Shown here piece by piece: positions 20 to 14,786 of a stretch of DNA of 20,061 bases (positions are counted from its first letter, which is position 1; every line of letters starts with the position of its first letter). The stretch is from the UHGV virus genome UHGV-0175271. The stretch is one strand, 5' to 3'. Made by a program: the position numbers and the translations under genes. The notes under the pieces were generated by a model that was given only the letters and a program-made list of their open reading frames with translations, had not been told where the DNA came from and ran no database searches. Source of the DNA: a virus.

Positions 20-922
20 TTATGAAAGCTCAAACACCTTGCCTTCCTTGGGTACGACTGAACAGGGATCCTGATGAATGATGACATCTGATCCCGGGAA
101 ACGCCGTAAAATTGCCTGCTCAACCTGTTCAGCCACTAAATGCGCCTGAACGAGCGGCAGATTATCTTCCATTTCCAAATGAATCTGAATAAAGCGGGTC
201 GGCCCTGACTGCCGCGTACGGAGATCGTGAGCACCACTGACGCCCGGCCATGATGTCACGATGTCAAAAATTTCCTGACGTTCTTCATCGGGTAATGCGC
301 GATCCAGTAACGACTGCACGGCATCATAACCCATGCGTAACGCGCTATATAAAATATAGATGCCAATCCCCAAAGCAAACAACGCGTCTGCACGATGCCA
401 GCCGTACCAGGCCAGACCGAGCGCCACGAGAATCGCACCGTTCATCATAACATCAGACTGATAATGAAGCATATCCGCCCGTACTGCCTGGCTTTGCGTC
501 CGCTTCACCACCCAGCGCTGAAACGAGACCAGCACCACAGTACATATCAGGGCGATAATGGTAACCACAACCCCCACGCCGGGTTCGTTCATCGGCGTCG
601 GTGTAATCAGATGCTGGATACCCGTTAAAAATAAAAACAACGCCGAACCGGAAATAAACATGCTTTGCGCCAGCGCAGCCAGTGATTCCGCTTTGCCATG
701 ACCAAAGGTATGTTCATCATCCGCGGGCTGCAGCGAATAGCGCACCACTAACAGGTTAGTGAGCGACGCGGCAATATCCACCAGCGAGTCGACCAGGGCC
801 GCCAGAATACTCACCGACCCGGTATACCACCACGCAAAAATTTTGATCAAAAGTAACAGCGATGCCATCACTGTCGCGGCAATGGCCGCCCGACTGACTA
901 ACCGCCCATAGGATTGATTCAT
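20..922 (-). CDS. fieF: Cation-diffusion-facilitator Fe(II)/Zn(II) efflux transporter FieF (YiiP)
   Basis: 300-codon ORF with multiple hydrophobic TM segments and a cytoplasmic C-terminal domain. The N-terminus [17 protein letters not shown]... and overall sequence match my recollection of E. coli FieF closely but not identically. ATG at 922 has a GGAG Shine-Dalgarno about 8 nt upstream; the track ORF extends to an upstream in-frame ATG at 937 that lacks an RBS. Confidence 0.9.
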
Positions 923-1003
923 AAACACTCCTGCCATTTCATGCCGGTAGTATAACGGATGGTGTAAGACAATCAGTGATTATGACGATGACAATTTACA
1001 GGC

Positions 1004-1159: not shown

Positions 1160-1870
1160 CTATTTTTTGAATTTATTCTGAAGATACTCGACTAAGTACT
1201 CGAAAAGTTTACTAATTGGTGTTGAGATCTGCGCCAATGTATTATTCTTCTCTTCTGCTTCTTCTTCCCTAAACAACGCCCGCATTAAAGCAATCGCAAG
1301 CGTTAACCCCACCCCAAGAATGAATGCAATGAGAGTTATCATGGGACTAATAGATAACCAGTTTGTCGTTTCCAAAAATTTTTCTATGAGGCTATTACGC
1401 TGCTGGGCTGCTTGAGTACTAAGTTCTCTAGCCGTTTCACGAGCATGATACAAACTCTCAGGGGGCGAAGGTTGAGCCGTGAAAACAAACTCACTAATTG
1501 CTTTGGGTGAAGACTCATCTACAACCCTCACCATTGCCTCTTTCACATCCTGCTTAGTTTTTAGCATATTGACAGTAAGGCATACCGACATGATTGCGCC
1601 AATAAGCAAAAACAGAGCGCTTGCCCCTACAGTAAAACGAAAGAGCCATTTACGCATATTGCGTCTATCTTCATGGTTTTCAGCACGATGACGCACATTC
1701 TCAGTACTTTCAGGTAAATTCGCTAAGGGAAATGACGGGTCTGGCGGCCCGACCACTATAGGTTCGCCAAATTTAATTGATTCTCCACCTTCATTTTTTG
1801 TCTCATTATGAGTTGGTTGAGTGCCTGATGTTGCTGTATTTGGGGAATTGTTAGATGATTCTTTAGACAT
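1160..1870 (-). CDS. Two-TM membrane protein of unknown function (second gene of the cargo operon)
   Basis: 236-aa ORF with ATG start. The N-terminal ~80 aa are hydrophilic and low-complexity (Ser/Thr/Asn/Pro/Glu-rich), followed by a basic patch RRNMRKW and TM1 (FRFTVGASALFLLIGAIMSVCLTV), a ~100-aa predicted periplasmic segment, TM2 (ISPMITLIAFILGVGLTLAIALMRALF) and an acidic/basic C-tail. Strongly AT-rich: hand counts on two 60-nt samples gave about 27% and 40% GC, against about 55% in a tail-gene sample. No family recognised. Confidence 0.6.
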   Translation of the reverse strand: MSKESSNNSPNTATSGTQPTHNETKNEGGESIKFGEPIVVGPPDPSFPLANLPESTENVRHRAENHEDRRNMRKWLFRFTVGASALFLLIGAIMSVCLTVNMLKTKQDVKEAMVRVVDESSPKAISEFVFTAQPSPPESLYHARETARELSTQAAQQRNSLIEKFLETTNWLSISPMITLIAFILGVGLTLAIALMRALFREEEAEEKNNTLAQISTPISKLFEYLVEYLQNKFKK

Positions 1871-1875
1871 AAAAA

Positions 1876-1900
1876 AGCCACCGAATTCAATTAGGTGGCT
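1876..1900 (-). promoter_or_regulatory. Intergenic stem-loop (AGCCACC / GGTGGCT, 11-nt loop) sequestering the downstream gene's Shine-Dalgarno and abutting its ATG
   Basis: 7-bp inverted repeat 1876-1882 / 1894-1900. On the minus strand the 3' arm contains GGTGG, the only SD-like sequence for the ATG at 1870, and is followed by U5-6 immediately before the ATG. It therefore looks like a partial intrinsic terminator or attenuator plus a translational block between the peptidase and membrane-protein genes. Confidence 0.4.
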
Positions 1901-1937
1901 TCATTTTAGTTTGAAAAGCATTCAGTATCTATAACTG

Positions 1938-2423
1938 TTATAGATAACCTAGATTTTTCATGCGCCAGTACATAGCTTCTTCTGATACGTCAAAGCGGCT
2001 AGCTAATGCTGAAACCGCATATACTTTTTCTCTATTGATCAACGTAGCGATCGCATCTTCTGGCATAAGAAGTTCAGCAGCGAAGCGATTAGCGTCTTTT
2101 TCTTCAACATAATTCCCATCATTCCAAGCGGGGTTTGAGTATTCCCTCAACTTCCGCCCGTTACGGGTATGCCCAAGGACATGATGCCCAAGCTCATGAG
2201 CTAGCGTAAAACGAATCCTGCTATGAGGATCTGAAGTGTTATATGAGATTACATAGCGACCTTCAGGTGTAATCTCAGCAAACCCACATTGATTTGAATT
2301 GCTTCCATCAGGAACCAACGGTGTTACTTGAATTCCCATTTTGTGTGCAATCAGGTCTGGTCGCACTGGCAAGCGACCATCCCAATGGGAATTAAGCACA
2401 GCTTTTACTGCGTTAAATTCCAT
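1938..2423 (-). CDS. ImmA/IrrE-family (M78 / DUF955 / COG2856-like) zinc metallopeptidase, stand-alone with no HTH domain
   Basis: 161-aa ORF with ATG start and an AGGGAGA SD 8-12 nt upstream. Contains the family-typical RFTLAHELGHHVLGH (HExxH) zinc motif followed by the conserved E..ANRFAAELLMP segment. AT-rich like its downstream partner. Its stop codon lies inside a 21-bp perfect palindrome (1926-1946). Confidence 0.8.
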   Translation of the reverse strand: MEFNAVKAVLNSHWDGRLPVRPDLIAHKMGIQVTPLVPDGSNSNQCGFAEITPEGRYVISYNTSDPHSRIRFTLAHELGHHVLGHTRNGRKLREYSNPAWNDGNYVEEKDANRFAAELLMPEDAIATLINREKVYAVSALASRFDVSEEAMYWRMKNLGYL

Positions 2424-5303: not shown

Positions 5304-5848
5304 TAACCCAAAGCATCATTGACGGGCTTCAGCACCTTGCGTTCAAACCACGTCAGTTTTTCTTCATCTTCTCCGGCCGTCTGACCACCGGATTGTTCCG
5401 CGCTGCCGGTTGTCTGTTTTTTCGCAGTGGTTTTGCCGGTTGATCTGGCTTCCCGCTTTTCCTGCACGCTAATATGTTCCGCCAGCGTGAAAGTCACCAT
5501 CCAGGACATTTTCCCGTCCTGCTGTGGTGCATCCAGCATTCCGCTGAATGTGGCCTCACGAAAATTCACCGCTCTGGCAACCTCATGCGCAACACGGTAT
5601 GTCTGTCGTTTCCCGCTACTATCGATAGCGCTGGCCAGTTCAAAGATACGCTTCAGAATCTCCGGATTTTTGAAAGGAATTTCGCCACTGATACGCAGCT
5701 CCTTTCCCTTTGCCCCCTGCTCAGATTTTGACGTTGCGCTGGTCTGCCCTGACTGGTCTTTATCCTGAAACTGCTGTGAGACTGTCACGCGCATATTCTT
5801 CAGCTGTATGGCCTCGCCGTTAAGCGCCAGTGTCGGGATCGAAGTCAT
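5303..5848 (-). CDS. Phage tail-associated protein, unassigned
   Basis: 181-aa ORF whose ATG overlaps the last 9 codons of the upstream gene, with an AAAGGGAA SD. Hydrophilic, with a Ser/Thr/Gln/Lys-rich linker. Function unknown. Confidence 0.5.
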   Translation of the reverse strand: MTSIPTLALNGEAIQLKNMRVTVSQQFQDKDQSGQTSATSKSEQGAKGKELRISGEIPFKNPEILKRIFELASAIDSSGKRQTYRVAHEVARAVNFREATFSGMLDAPQQDGKMSWMVTFTLAEHISVQEKREARSTGKTTAKKQTTGSAEQSGGQTAGEDEEKLTWFERKVLKPVNDALG

Positions 5849-6545
5849 GAATCATTCCCTTTATTCCATCAAGATTATCGCCAACCAGCATCATGGCAGC
5901 GGTGTAAACGGCAGACTGCTGCGGAATGTCCTTCACCAGTTCCAGTAACATGGTGCCGGTGTCTCCGCTGGCAGTAAAAACCCACGCTCTGGCACTCTTC
6001 CCCTGTAAATCGTTCAGGCCGTTGGCCACATCACTGATAAGTTGGTCACGCAGCTGCGTGAACTCGCCCAGCTGTTTTTTCAGCCCTTCGATATCAAACC
6101 CGGCACCCGCCGCCTTTTGTGCCTGGCTGATTGCCGCAGCAGATAAAGCTGTCCTGCTGGTTGGTACAGACAGCGGAATGGACGCAGGTAACGCTGCGGC
6201 GGTTTTCGCAGGGATCTGCATCTTTTCAATAGCCAGCGTTGCGGCGGATTGCGCCAGCCGTTTGACCTGCGTGAATGCCGGGGCGGGGAAAATCCCGACC
6301 AGGTTATTCAGGCTGGCCATAAAGTTTTCCTGCGTCTGTCCGGTGACCATCATAATCACCACATCCGCATTCCCCCCTGTTCCGGCCAGGCGTTCAGCAA
6401 GATAGCGAACGGCATTAACCGGGCTGAGATATGCTCCGTTCGCTGTCTGCTGCCCCAGCCCATAAATCCATGGATGCGCAGGGACGATAGAACAATTCAG
6501 CGCAGCAACAGAATCCGTGAAGGCCAGACGTGCTTCACGCCACAT
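5820..6545 (-). CDS. Phage tail-associated protein, unassigned
   Basis: ATG at 6545 preceded by GGAGG, overlapping the stop of the tail fiber assembly gene (so I prefer it to the track start at 6581). 241 aa, Ala-rich. Function unknown. Confidence 0.5.
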   Translation of the reverse strand: MWREARLAFTDSVAALNCSIVPAHPWIYGLGQQTANGAYLSPVNAVRYLAERLAGTGGNADVVIMMVTGQTQENFMASLNNLVGIFPAPAFTQVKRLAQSAATLAIEKMQIPAKTAAALPASIPLSVPTSRTALSAAAISQAQKAAGAGFDIEGLKKQLGEFTQLRDQLISDVANGLNDLQGKSARAWVFTASGDTGTMLLELVKDIPQQSAVYTAAMMLVGDNLDGIKGMIHDFDPDTGA

Positions 6546-7122
6546 TTCCAGGCACCTCCGGCCACACAATTTCCGGCGCATCTTCCGGTTGAATACGGTT
6601 CAGTAAAACGCGGTATTTTTTCCATGCGGTAAGCAGCAGTGCTTCTTCTTCGGTCGCCATGTCTAAATCTACGGCATCCTGCAATGTGGCAATGGCATCA
6701 TTGGCCTGTTTAAGCAGTCTTTTCTTTTCTGCATCTGCCTCGCTGACTAATGCAGTTCGCATGGCCTCCGCATCATCCACCCACGCCTTTCCATTCCATT
6801 TTTGCCAGGCATTAGCCGGGGCTGACGTGGTTGTCCCTTCCGGGTAAGCACCTGGCTCGGTGATCACCAGTTCATTACCGTTTTCCGTGTCAAACACCAC
6901 CTCACCACGATGATCCTCACGGGAAATCCATCTTTGCTTCTCTGAATCAAAAATTGCCACAAACCCCGCTTTGATTGCCGGTGGCTTTATTGTGGTGCAG
7001 TTTGCTGGCAGTCCGGTATGCGCAGGAATAAAAGCGTCACCGGAACCAATAAATTCATTCGTATCGGAACGCAGGTTATAAACAATAACTGTTTGATCGG
7101 TTTCACTCATTTTAAAAGTCAT
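6535..7122 (-). CDS. Tail fiber assembly protein (Tfa / gpG-like chaperone)
   Basis: 195-aa ORF immediately after the fiber gene (TAATG overlap). The N-terminal region (YNL...F..PAHTGLPAN.T..KPP..K.G....FD...Q.W....DHRG..V.D..NG) is typical of phage Tfa proteins. Confidence 0.75.
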   Translation of the reverse strand: MTFKMSETDQTVIVYNLRSDTNEFIGSGDAFIPAHTGLPANCTTIKPPAIKAGFVAIFDSEKQRWISREDHRGEVVFDTENGNELVITEPGAYPEGTTTSAPANAWQKWNGKAWVDDAEAMRTALVSEADAEKKRLLKQANDAIATLQDAVDLDMATEEEALLLTAWKKYRVLLNRIQPEDAPEIVWPEVPGNVA

Positions 7123-10470: not shown

Positions 10471-10796
10471 AAGTCCACCTGATATGAAAGCGTGCCAAAA
10501 TCGTATGTGCTCGCGGTCACCCACAACCGTTTCTGGCTTTCTTCACTGATTTCCACCGTTCCCGGCACAATGCGCTCATCGTTTTCAACCAGTAATTCCA
10601 GTTGTGTAAAAATATCTGCCCTCAGTGTCGGACTGCGTTCCGCAATTAATTGCGTGGCTAATCCGCTCTCAATAATGGCGTGAATAATGTCCTGCCCGAT
10701 ACTTTTTCGGTTATTACATAACTCAGGCTCATTACCGGCATTTAATGAGAAGTCACCGCTCTCAATAAGCAGGTCAATATAAAGGGCTTCACTCAT
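10467..10796 (-). CDS. Baseplate wedge protein, gp25 / GPW-like
   Basis: 109-aa ORF with a 4-nt overlap to the tape measure stop. Size and C-terminal pattern (DERIVPGTVEISEES...TASTYDFGTLSYQV) fit the small gp25/W-like wedge subunit. Confidence 0.55.
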   Translation of the reverse strand: MSEALYIDLLIESGDFSLNAGNEPELCNNRKSIGQDIIHAIIESGLATQLIAERSPTLRADIFTQLELLVENDERIVPGTVEISEESQKRLWVTASTYDFGTLSYQVDL

Positions 10797-12760
10797 GCAC
10801 CCAGCTCCTGATATTCCATTAACTTACCGGGCGACATCATTTCAGTTGGATAAATATTCACAGTATCAATTCTTCGGCTGTTATCCGTTACTGACTTAGA
10901 ATTACTGCTTATCGTTTTACTGATACCGCCTTTATCAACGCCTTTTAATTCACTGCCAGTAGAAAGGGTATTTGTTGTCAGTGCCGGTTGAGATTCGTTC
11001 GCCAGTGAAATATCGACGCCCGGAATTTTATTGAGCTTTCCGACAATCCAGTTCCACGACTTCAGGAACCCGCCTTTGATGGTCTGCCAGACGTTATCAA
11101 AAAGGGAGACAATCCCGCTGGCCATCCCGCTTAATGCCTGTGACGGGGAAAACCCGGTCAGCAGCGCAATAAAGCTGTTCCAGCCATCCGTGATCCATTG
11201 CCACGCAGCGGAGAACACGCCTGCGAGCCATTCCACCACACCAGCCACGGCGGTAAACGCCGCCGTATTCATCACCGCCGCTTTCACATCATCCCAGTGT
11301 TTAATCAGCAGATAACACCCGGCTGCCAGCAGAGCAATCGCCCCGATAACCAGCAGAACCGGCCAGCTCATCAGGTTGATGCCAATACCGGCCATAATCG
11401 CCGCCATGCGCACGGCCAGCAGCGTACCCCGCAGGAATTTCAGCGTCAGGTTCCACGCTACGACAGCCTTTGAGGCAACCCAGACTGTGGCCGCGTAAAT
11501 CTTCGTGACCAGCGTCAGGGCGCTCCAGAGTCCCTTCAGACCCACCAGGATAAATTTTGAGACGCCCATGACAATATTTGTCACCGCGCCCGCTGCCGCC
11601 ACGCCAAAGAGCGCAAGCTGCACGTAACCAGTCACCCGCGCAATGTTGGGAAACATCTGCATCCAGCGGCCGAACGTCTGCCCCATATCGGCCAGGCGGT
11701 TCAGTACCGGGTACAGAACCGGGATCAACGTCAGTCCGATCACCGTCTGAATGGCTTTGAGGATTTGTACAAAGCGATCCCACGGCTTGACCAGCTTCCC
11801 GGCCATCTCCTGTGTACGTTTCAGCCCGTCAGAGCCGCCCAGTTCGGTGATATTACGCTGCAGTAACGCCACATTGCCGTACAGGTGCTTTATCACCGCC
11901 GAACTGTCACCAAAGGCTGCATCCAGCTCCGCCTGGGCTTTCAGGTTCCCTTCCAGACTTTTGCCGTATTTGCCCTGCAGCTTGATCAGCATTTCAGGCA
12001 TGGACAGCATTTTGCCGGTGGAGTCAGTGAAGGACAGCCCCAGCTTTTTAGCTCCCTCCATCGCGCCGGTCATGAAACCTTCGTAAGCGCTGCTGGCTTC
12101 TGTCCCCAGCGTACGGTTGAGCTGTCCCAGCACCGCCAGCTGTTCATCCAGTCCGACGCCGTAGTTGGTACCAACACCCCGCGCCCCTTCCATCAGGTCT
12201 TTGATAGTCCCCATTTCAGTACCGAAGACCTTGCGCATATACACCATTTTCCCCGCCAGCTGCTCGGCGAACTGGACTTTACCCAGCCGCGCCGCATCGG
12301 CGGAAAAGTTACCGTACATCTGCCCCATGAACTCCGCCGTGTCGGCGGATGTGGATTTCAGGGCAAATGCCAGCGTATTAGCGACCTTCGTCACTTTCGG
12401 CAGCTCGCTGGCGGTAAGGCCGGCAATGGAAGCGTTAATGTTCTCTGTGGATTTGACGAACTCCACCGCGCTGGCACCCCAGGTCATGCTGAACCGGAGC
12501 GCATCACGCTGTACGGTCTTTAATGCCTGATTATCAATCCCTTTTGCGGCGGCATCATTCAGCGCGTCGTACATTTCGATAGCCGGCGATAACGCGCCTT
12601 TTATGGCCATCCCCGTACCGGCCAGCCCCAGCACGCCGCCGCCAATCTGCGAAAAGGCCGCTTTTGATTTTTCCGCAAAGCCGGTGACGCTGCCCTGCGC
12701 CTGTTTTAACGGGCGCGTCAGCTTATCAATCAGGCTTAATGTAAAATCTAACTGTTTCAT
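10793..12760 (-). CDS. Tail tape measure protein
   Basis: 655-aa ORF, Ala/Gly/Leu-rich with long helical segments and a central hydrophobic block, directly downstream of the frameshifting chaperone gene. Confidence 0.85.
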   Translation of the reverse strand: MKQLDFTLSLIDKLTRPLKQAQGSVTGFAEKSKAAFSQIGGGVLGLAGTGMAIKGALSPAIEMYDALNDAAAKGIDNQALKTVQRDALRFSMTWGASAVEFVKSTENINASIAGLTASELPKVTKVANTLAFALKSTSADTAEFMGQMYGNFSADAARLGKVQFAEQLAGKMVYMRKVFGTEMGTIKDLMEGARGVGTNYGVGLDEQLAVLGQLNRTLGTEASSAYEGFMTGAMEGAKKLGLSFTDSTGKMLSMPEMLIKLQGKYGKSLEGNLKAQAELDAAFGDSSAVIKHLYGNVALLQRNITELGGSDGLKRTQEMAGKLVKPWDRFVQILKAIQTVIGLTLIPVLYPVLNRLADMGQTFGRWMQMFPNIARVTGYVQLALFGVAAAGAVTNIVMGVSKFILVGLKGLWSALTLVTKIYAATVWVASKAVVAWNLTLKFLRGTLLAVRMAAIMAGIGINLMSWPVLLVIGAIALLAAGCYLLIKHWDDVKAAVMNTAAFTAVAGVVEWLAGVFSAAWQWITDGWNSFIALLTGFSPSQALSGMASGIVSLFDNVWQTIKGGFLKSWNWIVGKLNKIPGVDISLANESQPALTTNTLSTGSELKGVDKGGISKTISSNSKSVTDNSRRIDTVNIYPTEMMSPGKLMEYQELGA

Positions 12761-13205
12761 TCCGTGCCTTTAAATGCAGTGCTGATTCCGTTAGCAACCG
12801 CTATTCGCATATTTTCCCAGTGGCGATTATCCAGCCAGATAGCAGCGGATATATCATCCACGGAATCCTGACCGTGTGGTAAATAATGGCGACGCAAAAT
12901 TAAATACTGTTCGAGTCCGTTCTGTTCAATTGCCCGGACTCGTTTTGTCAGTTTTTTACTTCAATTTCCAGCTCTGGCGCATAAAGCTCATTCACTTTTC
13001 CGGCAAGCTGGAGCGCTGCACCCGGACGTTTCAGAATGTCTTCCAGCGCTTCTTTACTTTCCGTTGCCACAATGCGTACAAGATAATTGTGCGCGGGTGC
13101 CACTTTATTATCCATCGCCATTTCGTTGATGAACTTATTATAAGCGGTCTGATTCGGTTCAAAGGTAATTTCTTTTTTGCATACAACCAGATTAATTTTT
13201 TCCAT
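12757..13205 (-). CDS. Tail assembly chaperone -1 frameshift fusion product (E+E' / G-T type)
   Basis: From the slippery heptamer the -1 frame stays open for 64 codons with no stop (I read every codon) and ends at a TGA at 12759-12757 that overlaps the tape measure ATG at 12760-12758. Confidence 0.65.
12948..13205 (-). CDS. Tail assembly chaperone, short zero-frame product
   Basis: 85-aa acidic ORF immediately upstream of the tape measure gene, ending ...GAA GTA AAA AAC TGA. Confidence 0.7.
   Translation of the reverse strand: MEKINLVVCKKEITFEPNQTAYNKFINEMAMDNKVAPAHNYLVRIVATESKEALEDILKRPGAALQLAGKVNELYAPELEIEVKN
12951..12957 (-). promoter_or_regulatory. Programmed -1 ribosomal frameshift slippery heptamer A_AAA_AAC
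   Basis: Minus-strand AAAAAAC spans the last two sense codons (AAA AAC) of the chaperone ORF, directly before its TGA stop. Confidence 0.65.
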
Positions 13206-13491
13206 AAATAACTTTCTCTCTTAAATTAATTTCATCAACAAGCGCGTTATGCCGTGCAGCACACTGCCCGTATAACTCCAGATAAAGTGTCAGTAATTCC
13301 GCCGCGTCTTTTCCCTGCGTTCCACTCAGGCGCGGCAGCAGCGTGGCGCATTTAGTTTTCAGGTTTTCCTGATAACGTACGTTCGGTACTGGTGACGGCG
13401 TCGTTGTACATGCGGACAAAGTCATCAGACAGACACTTATTGGTAAATACCGGCTTAACCACTTCCGTGCGGATTTCACGCGGTGGCGCAT
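13192..13491 (-). CDS. o-spanin (outer-membrane lipoprotein, Rz1-like), overlapped architecture
   Basis: 99-aa ORF that starts in a different frame inside the 3' part of the i-spanin gene and extends past it. Basic n-region, hydrophobic core and lipobox L-S-A-C (MTLSAC), followed by a Pro/Thr-rich segment. Confidence 0.65.
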   Translation of the reverse strand: MRHRVKSARKWLSRYLPISVCLMTLSACTTTPSPVPNVRYQENLKTKCATLLPRLSGTQGKDAAELLTLYLELYGQCAARHNALVDEINLREKVIYGKN

Positions 13492-13684
13492 TTTTCAGTG
13501 CCTCCAGTTTGTCTTCCAGCCGGCGACCGGATGAACCGGCAATTTCAGCCAGTTGTTCCCCGGTCGCGGTGACCGCTTTTGAGACAGTCAGATCAACACT
13601 GTCCCGCTGCCAGCCGGCCGTTTTCCAGCCGGCTATAAATGCCAGAGCAAGGGTGAATAACCAGCCTGACACGACGCGATCCAT
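13352..13684 (-). CDS. i-spanin (Rz-like, N-terminal TM anchor)
   Basis: 110-aa ORF whose ATG overlaps the endolysin stop (TGATG). N-terminal TM segment (WLFTLALAFIAGW) followed by a charged, helical periplasmic domain. Confidence 0.65.
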   Translation of the reverse strand: MDRVVSGWLFTLALAFIAGWKTAGWQRDSVDLTVSKAVTATGEQLAEIAGSSGRRLEDKLEALKNAPPREIRTEVVKPVFTNKCLSDDFVRMYNDAVTSTERTLSGKPEN

Positions 13685-14025
13685 CAGCGCACCCCGTTAT
13701 GTTCCAGGCTGAAATGATTACCATCAGGGCGGGATTTGAAGCGACCGCCCCATGAACCACCCAGCGATTCCCAGTATTCGCCCAGCGGCAGATACGCCGC
13801 GCTGTTGGTCTGATACTGGCCATTAATGAACAGATTGAAGTCCACGGCCAGACGCTGCGTGTGCAGACTATTGGAAATGCCGCTGCCTTTTTTCGCGTTC
13901 ATTGCAGCCTGTTCCGGGGTACGGTAAGCCTCACCAAACGTCAGTCGGTAGCCATGTTCTTCAGCCCACTGGATCAGATTTGCCACCATAACGGTAAAGA
14001 GTTGCTGTTTTTCGCTCAGAGTCAT
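13684..14025 (-). CDS. Endolysin, peptidase M15 family (L-alanyl-D-glutamate endopeptidase type)
   Basis: 113-aa ORF with the zinc-ligand pattern H-x6-D (SLHTQRLAVD) and a downstream H (DGNHF) typical of small M15 phage endolysins. Its start overlaps the holin stop. Confidence 0.7.
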   Translation of the reverse strand: MTLSEKQQLFTVMVANLIQWAEEHGYRLTFGEAYRTPEQAAMNAKKGSGISNSLHTQRLAVDFNLFINGQYQTNSAAYLPLGEYWESLGGSWGGRFKSRPDGNHFSLEHNGVR

Positions 14026-14318
14026 TTCCCTGTCCCTTTATCAAAAATCCCTGTAAAACCCCGCTTACGCAGCCAGGCTTCCACCGCATTCTGCCCCAGA
14101 ATACCCAGCGCGGAGCCAAATCCGGCCAGCGCGAGCGGATGAATATCCGGGACAAAGTACAGCGCCACCCCGGCAATCAGTGACAGCCCGCTGCCCACAA
14201 TGACACGCCCCGCCACCAGACGAAGGGTGATCGGTTCATCACTGTTAAGCAATTTACCCAGCGCAATCAGCGCCCCCATGACTGCCAGTGCAATGAACCC
14301 CTTTTCGTACTCCTGCAT
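14022..14318 (-). CDS. Holin
   Basis: 98-aa ORF with three predicted TM segments and a charged C-terminus (RKRGFTGIFDKGTGK), immediately upstream of and overlapping the endolysin gene. Confidence 0.65.
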   Translation of the reverse strand: MQEYEKGFIALAVMGALIALGKLLNSDEPITLRLVAGRVIVGSGLSLIAGVALYFVPDIHPLALAGFGSALGILGQNAVEAWLRKRGFTGIFDKGTGK

Positions 14319-14330
14319 CCCTGCTGCCTC

Positions 14331-14786
14331 TTATCCAATCAGGTTTTCCGTGGCTTCCGCTTCCAGATACGGCACACCGTTGATGTTGACGAACTTCGGA
14401 CTTGTCACGAAGTATTTGATTTTATGCGTGGACACACTGCCACCCTTCGGATCACCATCCAGAACGCTGTTGAGCTGCAGCTTGTTACCAAAGGTTTCCA
14501 CCTTCATTTCTTCTCTGCCGGCTTTGGCGTAAAAAAGGAAGTCAACCGGAGGAATGCCACGCCATGACCCCGCTGAACGGGCTTTGGCTGTCAGAACCTG
14601 CAGCACTTTGGAACTGACTTCAATTTCACCCTCGGCGGCAACATCACCGTCCACATACCCGTCAGGGACACCGCGCGTCTGTGCCGCCGCGCTGTTATCG
14701 GTGATATCCAGCGAAATTTTTTCAATGTGGATCAGGTCGCCGTCCAGATAGATGTCAAAGGACATCCCTGAAATACGTTTGGTCAT
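14331..14786 (-). CDS. Tail tube protein (FII-like position)
   Basis: 151-aa ORF with an ATGA overlap to the sheath gene stop. Assigned from the sheath, tube, chaperone, tape measure order; no direct similarity to P2 FII. Confidence 0.6.
   Translation of the reverse strand: MTKRISGMSFDIYLDGDLIHIEKISLDITDNSAAAQTRGVPDGYVDGDVAAEGEIEVSSKVLQVLTAKARSAGSWRGIPPVDFLFYAKAGREEMKVETFGNKLQLNSVLDGDPKGGSVSTHKIKYFVTSPKFVNINGVPYLEAEATENLIG

Follow-up and report, generated by a model that had tools for sequence, protein, structure and literature searches.

A probable programmed −1 ribosomal frameshift joining the tail assembly chaperone of an HP1-group prophage to a DUF6890 extension

Tail assembly chaperone frameshifts of the G/GT type, typified by G/GT of phage lambda and E/E+E′ of P2, reportedly form a class set out by Xu, Hendrix and Duda in 2004. 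In lambda, the −1 frameshift between G and G-T occurs at G_GGA_AAG. The two lambda products stand in a G:GT ratio of ~30:1, and long-tailed phages conserve the arrangement (PMC5009743). P2 produces E (91 aa) and E+E′ (142 aa; PMC3091744) via a −1 frameshift at T_TTT_TTG, with no hairpin downstream (Christie et al, 2002, as cited in PMC3091744). The HP1 and P2 subgroups diverge strongly in their tail modules (PMC10612066).

The locus described here lies within a window of 20,061 nucleotides (the whole stretch of virus genome UHGV-0175271 that was analyzed), and the host element is an HP1-group Peduoviridae prophage of E. coli, Evevirus/ESSI-2-like. Genes are ordered sheath, tube, holin, endolysin, Rz/Rz1, chaperone (with extension) and tape measure, such that the lysis cassette falls between the tube and chaperone genes (as in HP1), and the chaperone with its overlapping −1 ORF sits downstream of the tube gene at 14331..14786 and immediately upstream of the tape measure gene. 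The coding features are as follows:

13205..12948, minus strand: zero-frame tail assembly chaperone gene, 85 aa, the counterpart of lambda gpG and P2 gpE (ATG 13205..13203, TGA 12950..12948)
12957..12951, minus strand: slippery heptamer A_AAA_AAC (X_XXY_YYZ), covering Lys84 and Asn85, the last two sense codons, with the stop codon adjoining
12760..12951, minus strand: −1-frame extension of 64 codons (LTKRVRAIEQNG...ISTAFKGTE), the counterpart of lambda T and P2 E′, which with the upstream 85 aa would give a 149-aa fusion of about 17 kDa
12759..12757, minus strand: −1-frame TGA stop, overlapping the tape measure ATG (12760..12758) as ATGA
12757..12897, minus strand: separate 46-aa gene of public records with a TTG start, named “DUF6890 family protein” or “hypothetical protein”
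10793..12760, minus strand: tail tape measure protein gene, 655 aa (Pfam PF10145, E 1.1e-21; phrog_28, E 4e-96)

The label carried by phrog_28 is “tail length tape measure protein”; the separate 46-aa gene is found in RefSeq E. coli NZ_AP023286 and in phage ESSI2_ev239.

The 85-aa product matches Pfam PF10963 (Phage_TAC_10) across the entire model (1–82 of 82; 120.8 bits against a cut-off of 25.7), and its predicted structure adopts a tail assembly chaperone fold. Translation of 13205..12948 ends ...EIEVKN*, confirming the terminal codons GTA AAA AAC TGA that the original prediction had read, and the heptamer is in register for the proposed −1 slip, which does open 64 new codons. From the heptamer, the −1 frame reads KK and then the 64 codons (LTKRVRAIEQ...AFKGTE), and is free of stops, as claimed, up to the TGA that overlaps the tape measure ATG. 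Upstream, this frame opens only one codon ahead of A_AAA_AAC (a TGA lies just before it: AAT TGA AGT AAA AAA CTG); the zero and −1 frames hence overlap by only 13 nt, with the heptamer at the center. Two details of the prediction needed amending: the untranslated-looking gap between chaperone and tape measure genes is 187 nt (12761..12947) rather than 188, and the printed extension peptide, while holding the 64 new residues it was said to hold, runs to 65 because one heptamer lysine was kept. Termination of the fusion on the tape measure start was also part of the claim; the ATGA is present here and in 83 of 84 close loci (window included), but distant relatives do not retain it, the interval from −1 stop to tape measure start ranging from a 1-nt overlap (YenM_324) up to a 26-nt spacing. 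The ATGA overlap is ordinary operon packing.

A_AAA_AAC is a classic shifty heptamer (PMC5009743) and features among the top consensus −1 heptamers of prokaryotic frameshift clusters (PMC3711429), although in E. coli it is much less shift-prone than A_AAA_AAG (PMC5009743), hence frameshift efficiency at this site may be low and is not predictable. It is invariant in all 84 close loci (window included), each of which also retains the register, the −1 ORF and a TGA or TAA directly 3′ of the heptamer. Across four clades of HP1-group Peduoviridae, A_AAA_AAN in register ahead of a −1 ORF of 62–66 codons is present at 197 of 197 distinct intact loci; for these and 12 named distant phages alike, the arrangement is GTA AAA AAN with a −1 ORF of 62–75 codons. 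Each clade has a fixed Z base in A_AAA_AAZ: enterobacterial and Pasteurellaceae phages carry C, Vibrio phages A and Pseudomonas-type phages G. The zero frame runs 7–8 codons beyond the heptamer in the phi3, UFJF_PfPro and ACA1 lineages, indicating that the conserved element is the heptamer and not the stop codon.

Among the best 120 of 140 database homologues, all proteins are 85–99 aa with PF10963 present and PF21830 (the family of the extension, below) absent, which argues that the two-product layout is maintained; no natural in-frame fusion occurs in this set. A Vibrio prophage contig (L108) has acquired one extra A, generating a single in-frame ORF (...VKKIDAL...), and this variant shows that a single polypeptide can contain both parts. 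In the homologous gene of Pseudoalteromonas phage ACA1, the same frameshift was annotated by the depositors; it is unannotated in the records of HP1, K139, phiO18P, F108, SI7, ESSI-2 and the Evevirus phages.

The extension is a match to Pfam PF21830 (DUF6890), covering model positions 1–44 of 44 with residues 104–147 of the conceptual fusion (86.8 bits against a cut-off of 23.6, E 7.6e-25), and also matches phrog_7050. Its evolution is that of a coding sequence read in the −1 frame: entropy is 0.28, 0.18 and 0.92 at codon positions 1, 2 and 3, and in 57 distinct close relatives 61% of substitutions are synonymous in this frame, versus 11% and 7% in the other two. The 18 codons ahead of the annotated TTG display the same pattern (0.19/0.23/0.75), such that −1-frame codon periodicity sets in at the heptamer, before the first codon that could serve as a start. 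By tblastn, homology of the extension begins at its residue 1 and adjoins the chaperone match with one shared base (abutting matches in HP1, HP2, phiO18P, F108, YenM_324 and ev239, from six host genera). No conserved ATG, GTG or TTG start, nor a Shine–Dalgarno sequence, was found for the extension in 78 distinct relatives. A scan of the fusion against NCBIfam matched no family, a PDB sequence search with it gave nothing meaningful, and searches of the literature (outside the texts of Christie et al, 2002 and Xu et al, 2004) turned up nothing on DUF6890 or on a frameshift in the HP1 tail assembly chaperone.

Downstream of the heptamer, the following elements are discernible:

12943..12950, minus strand: 8-nt spacer UGACAAAA separating the heptamer from the hairpin and opening with the three bases of the zero-frame stop codon
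12912..12942, minus strand: candidate stimulatory hairpin, present in the MFE and centroid folds and in the RNAalifold consensus
12942..12935, minus strand: 5′ arm of the hairpin, CGAGUCCG
12934..12920, minus strand: 15-nt loop
12919..12912, minus strand: 3′ arm, CGGACUCG

The hairpin has an 8-bp stem (approximately −14 kcal/mol folded alone), and its position agrees with the suggestion that a structure might be sought ~5–9 nt from the heptamer, with the restriction that it belongs to this clade only. In 37 distinct sequences of the Evevirus/ESSI-2 clade, RNAalifold finds 296 of 296 cells paired; one pair covaries between G–C and A–U (13 sequences) and three further pairs undergo wobble-preserving changes, the covariation being confined to that one pair and the 37 sequences being related to each other. 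Synonymous-site entropy is 0.43 bits in the hairpin arms versus 0.99 outside them, and the gain of the 101-nt fold over shuffles is only modest (z = −1.86). Conservation of the hairpin at 8 nt is limited to the Evevirus/ESSI-2 clade: structure is weak or absent in YenM_324 and ACA1, lies further downstream (~27 nt) in HP1-like phages and is missing at canonical spacing from phi3-like phages. A family-wide conserved hairpin was considered and rejected, the consensus structures of the four clades being different; confined to one clade, the hairpin cannot be essential to a family-wide mechanism. The second stem of an H-type pseudoknot is possible but weak: the loop sequence AAUUGAA can pair with UUUAAUU 7 nt past the stem, with 90% of cells paired, yet all by A–U or G–U, two positions breaking in 7 and 15 of the 37 sequences, and a single compensatory C–G change in one sequence. 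An Rfam scan of 12700..13260 (E up to 10) returned chance-level matches only and no known frameshift element. Reading the sequence ...GAGCTGGAAATTGAAGT ahead of the heptamer by eye, rather than by a scan, we saw no upstream Shine–Dalgarno stimulator like that of dnaX.

The anatomy of the site, the two protein families, the chaperone fold, the coding signature, the lack of a start codon belonging to the extension, the conservation and the hairpin covariation together lead us to conclude that the locus very probably undergoes programmed −1 ribosomal frameshifting of the lambda G/GT or P2 E/E+E′ type, giving chaperones of 85 and 149 aa. This supports the architecture originally assigned, every sequence-level prediction of it that could be tested having held. 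Most ribosomes would read GTA AAA AAC and stop at the TGA to release the 85-aa chaperone; a minority would shift back by one base on A_AAA_AAC, through movement of tRNA-Lys and tRNA-Asn in tandem or of the P-site tRNA alone while the stop codon occupies the A site, and would then read CTG ACA AAA ... through 64 further codons to produce the fusion. Slippage would be helped by the adjacent stop codon and by the conserved 8-bp hairpin 8 nt downstream. Tandem slippage keeps residue 85 as Asn, so the junction would more likely be EIEVKN-LTKR (VKN-L) than the EIEVKK-LTKR (VKK-L) first proposed. If the pair behaves like lambda gpG/gpGT and P2 gpE/gpE+E′, the tape measure protein, its expected binding partner, would be coated by the N-terminal part common to both products, the DUF6890 domain at the C terminus of the rarer fusion would bring in the tail tube protein, and both chaperones would depart before completion of the virion. 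Since virions of lambda lack gpG and gpGT (PMC5009743), such chaperones would not be expected in virions, and virion mass spectrometry would be a poor test.

Public annotation embodies a different view, in which the extension is an independent 46-aa “DUF6890 family protein” gene starting at TTG 12897, with no frameshift involved; PGAP and a phage RefSeq record both call a separate CDS, the TTG is indeed present in the window, and the DUF6890 model of Pfam covers no more than the last 44 residues. We regard this as highly improbable. Of 78 distinct relatives, just 9 have that TTG, the position being taken elsewhere by TTA, CTT, CTC or CTA as synonymous Leu codons; the TTG is not preceded by a Shine–Dalgarno sequence, and in 55 of the 78 the first ATG, GTG or TTG comes at codon 33 or later, where initiation would remove most of the conserved domain. 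Moreover, the stretch of 18 codons from heptamer to TTG evolves as −1-frame coding sequence, and its protein-level conservation reaches HP1, K139 and Pseudomonas phages, homology running from the first residue of the extension. Read as part of a frameshift product, the span 12757..12897 would simply be the 3′ part of the extension and no independent gene. Even less credible, and effectively excluded by the coding signature, is the proposal that the −1 ORF is a remnant or a chance open frame and that the hairpin is an attenuator or terminator acting between the chaperone and tape measure genes. An open frame of such length arose in 406 of 20,000 shuffles of the gap (about 2%), which makes openness by itself weak evidence. 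Decisive are the comparative data, with heptamer, register and −1 ORF retained at all 84 close loci, in the 12 distant phages and at the 197 loci of four clades; the frame is also under strong purifying selection and matches a Pfam family. A U-rich stretch does lie a few bases past the hairpin, but it is an interrupted tract beginning 7 nt beyond the stem, and no terminator-like or promoter-like site was called in 12600..13400.

A fused product could also arise before translation, were RNA polymerase to add one A on the A6 run and so furnish a fraction of mRNAs with an in-frame ...VKK-LTKR junction. A homopolymeric run is present at the site (six A's here and seven in the Vibrio and Pseudoalteromonas clades), the extra A in the DNA of L108 yields exactly such an in-frame fusion, and transcriptional slippage is a recognized alternative route (PMC5009743). 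We nevertheless judge it very unlikely at this locus: six A's fall short of the runs generally known for efficient polymerase slippage; the run is always in exact X_XXY_YYZ register with a clade-specific Z (a partial argument, the V-K-N/K residues being conserved too); and a conserved hairpin 8 nt downstream is placed as expected for a ribosomal stimulator and not for a polymerase slippage signal.

The main value of the finding is one of annotation correction. RefSeq E. coli genomes, like the Evevirus and ESSI-2 phage records, either call the extension as a gene of its own (“DUF6890 family protein” or “hypothetical protein”) or omit it, and the 149-aa product is missing from the proteomes of these genomes and phages. 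Pfam DUF6890, listed as of unknown function, can be assigned a putative role: it would be the C-terminal domain, read in the −1 frame, of HP1-type tail assembly chaperones. For recoding, the locus offers a well-conserved bacterial case of A_AAA_AAC with an adjacent stop and a covariation-supported hairpin, for which sister clades with AAA or AAG and without the hairpin provide a convenient comparative set. Current understanding of tail assembly and of frameshifting is unchanged: the mechanism is well known in phages, the ACA1 homologue is already annotated in this way, and this is a further case. More speculatively, the frameshift site of the HP1 group might have been tuned lineage by lineage, the enterobacterial Evevirus/ESSI-2 clade, alone in combining the intrinsically weak A_AAA_AAC with both an adjacent stop and a covarying hairpin at 8 nt (possibly a pseudoknot), having gained these as compensating stimulators; it is conceivable, and similarly tentative, that they hold the chaperone-to-fusion ratio. 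Were such tuning real, DUF6890 would be a frameshift-only, tube-recruiting domain and no free-standing family, and the clades would constitute a natural series for how frameshift efficiency is set.

Comparison with described systems places the locus by degrees. Like E. coli dnaX, IS911-type A_AAA_AAG sites and the A_AAA_AAC sites of retroviruses and astroviruses, it combines an A-rich X_XXY_YYZ heptamer with a downstream hairpin at short spacing; relative to dnaX and IS911-type sites, its AAC second codon is, in E. coli, much less shifty than AAG, and the biological role is unrelated. The dnaX site also uses an upstream Shine–Dalgarno-like stimulator. Lambda G/GT differs in heptamer, belongs to different Pfam families and has no detectable sequence similarity; the phage here is a contractile-tailed myovirus with its lysis cassette between tube and chaperone genes, and its Evevirus/ESSI-2 clade has a conserved downstream hairpin. 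With P2 E/E+E′, the locus shares membership of the Peduoviridae, the position before the tape measure gene and similar product sizes (91/142 versus 85/149 aa), although the heptamer is AAAAAAC here and TTTTTTG in P2, which is without the downstream hairpin. A Pfam scan with E up to 10 found no P2-type or other chaperone family, returning only PF10963, PF21830 and two sub-threshold, unrelated matches; judged at this level, the site would work like P2 E/E+E′ but is no member of the gpE/gpE+E′ sequence families. True homologues are instead gp36/gp36a of ACA1 (GenBank OR438928) and HP1 orf26 with its relatives, which belong to PF10963 at 40–44% identity and share both the GTA AAA AAN site and a homologous −1 extension. 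The ACA1 version differs in having A_AAA_AAA, a zero frame running 8 codons past the heptamer and no comparable hairpin, and its record already describes a [quoted passage not shown].

Every gene in this part of the window lies on the minus strand, and the proposed frameshift site and its surroundings are laid out below.

13205..12948 (-), chaperone ORF, 85 aa, 3′ codons ...GAA ATT GAA GTA AAA AAC TGA
12957..12951 (-), slippery heptamer A AAA AAC, canonical X_XXY_YYZ in the zero-frame register
12760..12758 (-), tape measure ATG, opening a 655-aa ORF and sharing ATGA with the -1-frame stop
12759..12757 (-), -1-frame stop TGA

From the heptamer the -1 frame reads KK followed by 64 further codons (LTKRVRAIEQNGLEQYLILRRHYLPHGQDSVDDISAAIWLDNRHWENMRIAVANGISTAFKGTE). 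A -1-frame TGA sits two codons ahead of the heptamer's first AAA (AAT TGA AGT AAA AAA CTG), so that both frames are open together over only 13 nt with the heptamer at the center. The original prediction described this site accurately (heptamer, register, 64-codon -1 extension and a TGA over the tape measure ATG are all present in the sequence), although the gap it gave as 188 is in fact 187 nt (12761..12947), and the extension peptide it printed included one heptamer Lys. Its junction, EIEVKK-LTKR, should be EIEVKN-LTKR under tandem slippage, since residue 85 stays Asn.

The 85-aa protein matches the whole of the Pfam tail assembly chaperone model Phage_TAC_10 (PF10963, E 2.8e-35) and also phrog_1214; the 655-aa ORF is the tape measure protein (PF10145; phrog_28, E 4e-96). 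The genes upstream of the chaperone encode a sheath protein, a tube protein of HP1-Orf24 type, a holin, an M15 endolysin and spanins resembling Rz/Rz1, in the order seen in Haemophilus phage HP1. The complete lysis cassette (13192..14318, -) is situated between the tail tube and chaperone genes, as is that of HP1.

14022..14318 (-), holin
13684..14025 (-), M15 endolysin
13352..13684 (-), Rz-like spanin
13192..13491 (-), Rz1/LysC-like lipoprotein ORF, overlapping the Rz-like spanin; its 3′ end runs 14 nt into the chaperone start, counted from the chaperone ATG

At the DNA level, identity is 97.7% to Escherichia phage ESSI2_ev239 (genus Evevirus, Peduoviridae) and 99.5% to prophages carried by 13 complete E. 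coli genomes. The prophage is an integrated one, since a host cation-efflux gene (20..937, -; PF01545 and ZT_dimer) occupies the left end of the window. Beyond it (1160..2423, -) come an ORF lacking a family match and a Peptidase_M78/IrrE-like ORF, and this change from host gene probably places one prophage boundary near 940–1160. Neither ORF 1160..1870 (-; 236 aa) nor ORF 5820..6581 (-; 253 aa) has a Pfam match; the latter overlaps an HP1_ORF34-like baseplate gene and the tail fiber assembly gene.

When translated as a continuation of the chaperone, the -1 peptide scores 86.8 bits against Pfam DUF6890 (PF21830; cut-off 23.6) and also matches phrog_7050. Openness alone is little proof of coding, because ~2% of shuffles give an open frame this long; the case rests instead on coding signature and conservation. 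Among 57 distinct close relatives, entropy is 0.28/0.18/0.92 bits at -1-frame codon positions 1/2/3, and synonymous changes make up 61% of codon differences when these are read in the -1 frame, but 11% and 7% when read in either of the others. RefSeq begins a separate 46-aa “DUF6890 family protein” at TTG 12897, implying independent initiation; this is contradicted by the 18 codons between heptamer and TTG, which evolve as -1-frame coding sequence with like periodicity (0.19/0.23/0.75). Of 78 distinct relatives only 9 have TTG 12897, ahead of which no Shine-Dalgarno sequence lies, and in 55 the first ATG/GTG/TTG of the -1 ORF falls at codon 33 or later. Taken together, this marks the extension as a genuine translated domain that has no start codon of its own.

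The site is retained across relatives. In 84 close loci (80 IMG/VR relatives, three annotated or window copies, and L003) AAAAAAC is invariant and directly followed by TGA or TAA; the -1 ORF has 66 codons in 83, and ATGA is likewise kept in 83. In ev239, YenM_324, phiO18P, HP1, HP2 and F108, tblastn matches to chaperone and extension overlap by exactly one base, the signature of a -1 relationship. Zero-frame GTA/CTA AAA AAN (CTA in K139) is found in 12/12 named phages of Haemophilus, Pasteurella, Vibrio, Salinivibrio, Aeromonas, Pseudoalteromonas, Pseudomonas, Salmonella and Yersinia; their -1 ORFs span 65–75 codons, open a few codons upstream at most, and end between a 1-nt overlap with the tape measure ATG and 26 nt ahead of it. 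Three more scans brought the total to 197 distinct intact loci with the site, the last heptamer base (equivalent to window 12951) being fixed within each clade (loci L004–L258).

Table. Heptamer by clade among intact loci.
Evevirus/ESSI-2-like (enterobacterial): 63 loci, A_AAA_AAC
HP1-like (Pasteurellaceae): 36 loci, A_AAA_AAC
PV94-like Vibrio: 26 loci, A_AAA_AAA
phi3-like (Pseudomonas-type): 72 loci, A_AAA_AAG

Zero-frame reading extends 7 codons beyond the heptamer in phi3-like loci; the conserved element is thus the heptamer and not the stop codon. Five exceptional loci stand outside the 197: two truncated contigs, two identical HP1-like loci and one Vibrio locus. The HP1-like pair (L138 and L140, from IMG/VR) keep the heptamer, but an indel within the extension, ~60 nt ahead of the tape measure gene, breaks the -1 ORF; residues after it carry on in another frame, which suggests a decaying prophage or assembly error. 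In L108, a PV94-like Vibrio prophage (IMGVR_UViG_2767802213_000001, ~501–950), chaperone and extension are continuous in one frame (...LQIKVKKIDALVRAMD...AFSG*, junction ...VKKIDAL...). We attribute this to an additional A in the A run; the fused ORF is either a variant occurring in nature or a sequencing artifact of the homopolymer.

The original prediction advised looking for a stem-loop or pseudoknot about 5–9 nt past the heptamer, and a hairpin does begin at 8 nt (CGAGUCCG, 15-nt loop, CGGACUCG; 12942..12912). It folds at ~-14 kcal/mol alone and appears in both MFE and centroid folds. RNAalifold on 37 distinct clade sequences returns exactly the same helix, with standard pairs in 296/296 cells; pairing falls to 28–39% when the 3′ partner is shifted one column. 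The closing G-C becomes A-U in 13 sequences (Arg to Gln/His on one side, synonymous AAC to AAT on the other), and three other pairs change to G-U wobbles only. Third-codon-position entropy is 0.43 bits in the arms versus 0.99 outside (p = 0.013, small n). Loop AAUUGAA could pair with UUUAAUU 7 nt past the stem as an H-type pseudoknot (12884..12934, -; alignment A1 columns 39–45 and 66–72), this candidate helix being paired in 90% of cells, all A-U or G-U, with two positions often broken. The hairpin is specific to the window's clade: downstream structure is slight in YenM_324 and ACA1, HP1-like phages carry a hairpin ~27 nt downstream instead, and none was found near the site in phi3-like phages. 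No terminator- or promoter-like site was called in the region, and no Rfam family matched it.

Coding signature, conserved heptamer register and -1 ORF together make programmed -1 ribosomal frameshifting, as originally proposed, the best-supported reading. Zero-frame termination would yield the abundant 85-aa chaperone, and a -1 slip on the heptamer the rarer 149-aa fusion. A low intrinsic rate, boosted by the adjacent stop codon and hairpin, is a reasonable supposition because A_AAA_AAC shifts much less than A_AAA_AAG in E. coli (PMC5009743). Transcriptional slippage on the A6 run, the only rival that we put at more than a few percent, would make the same protein except for Lys in place of Asn at the junction. 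Of 140 homologues of the fusion from the database, the best 120 are 85–99 aa and contain PF10963 without the extension domain PF21830.

Such frameshifting is itself textbook. For one homologue it has already been projected: gp36a of Pseudoalteromonas phage ACA1, whose GenBank entry describes the shift as “analogous to that in phage P2”. The frameshift is unannotated in the records of HP1, K139, phiO18P, F108, SI7, YenM_324 and ESSI-2, as in Evevirus phage records and E. coli RefSeq genomes. The practical value is in annotation, with DUF6890 predicted to be a frameshift-only C-terminal domain of HP1-type chaperones, and, more modestly, in comparative data on the variation of shift site and stimulators between lineages. 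In a Pfam scan with E up to 10, only PF10963 and PF21830 pass threshold; at the sequence level the site is a member of neither P2 E/E′ nor lambda G/T, but of the HP1-type family. The tail module of this family has diverged deeply from its P2 counterpart (PMC10612066). P2, which shifts at TTTTTTG without a hairpin, produces E (91 aa) and E+E′ (142 aa; PMC3091744). In lambda, gpG and gpGT are produced at ~30:1; each binds the tape measure protein, tube protein is recruited by the T domain, and the virion contains neither gpG nor gpGT; the shift is 2–3 times more frequent in P2-type phages (PMC5009743).
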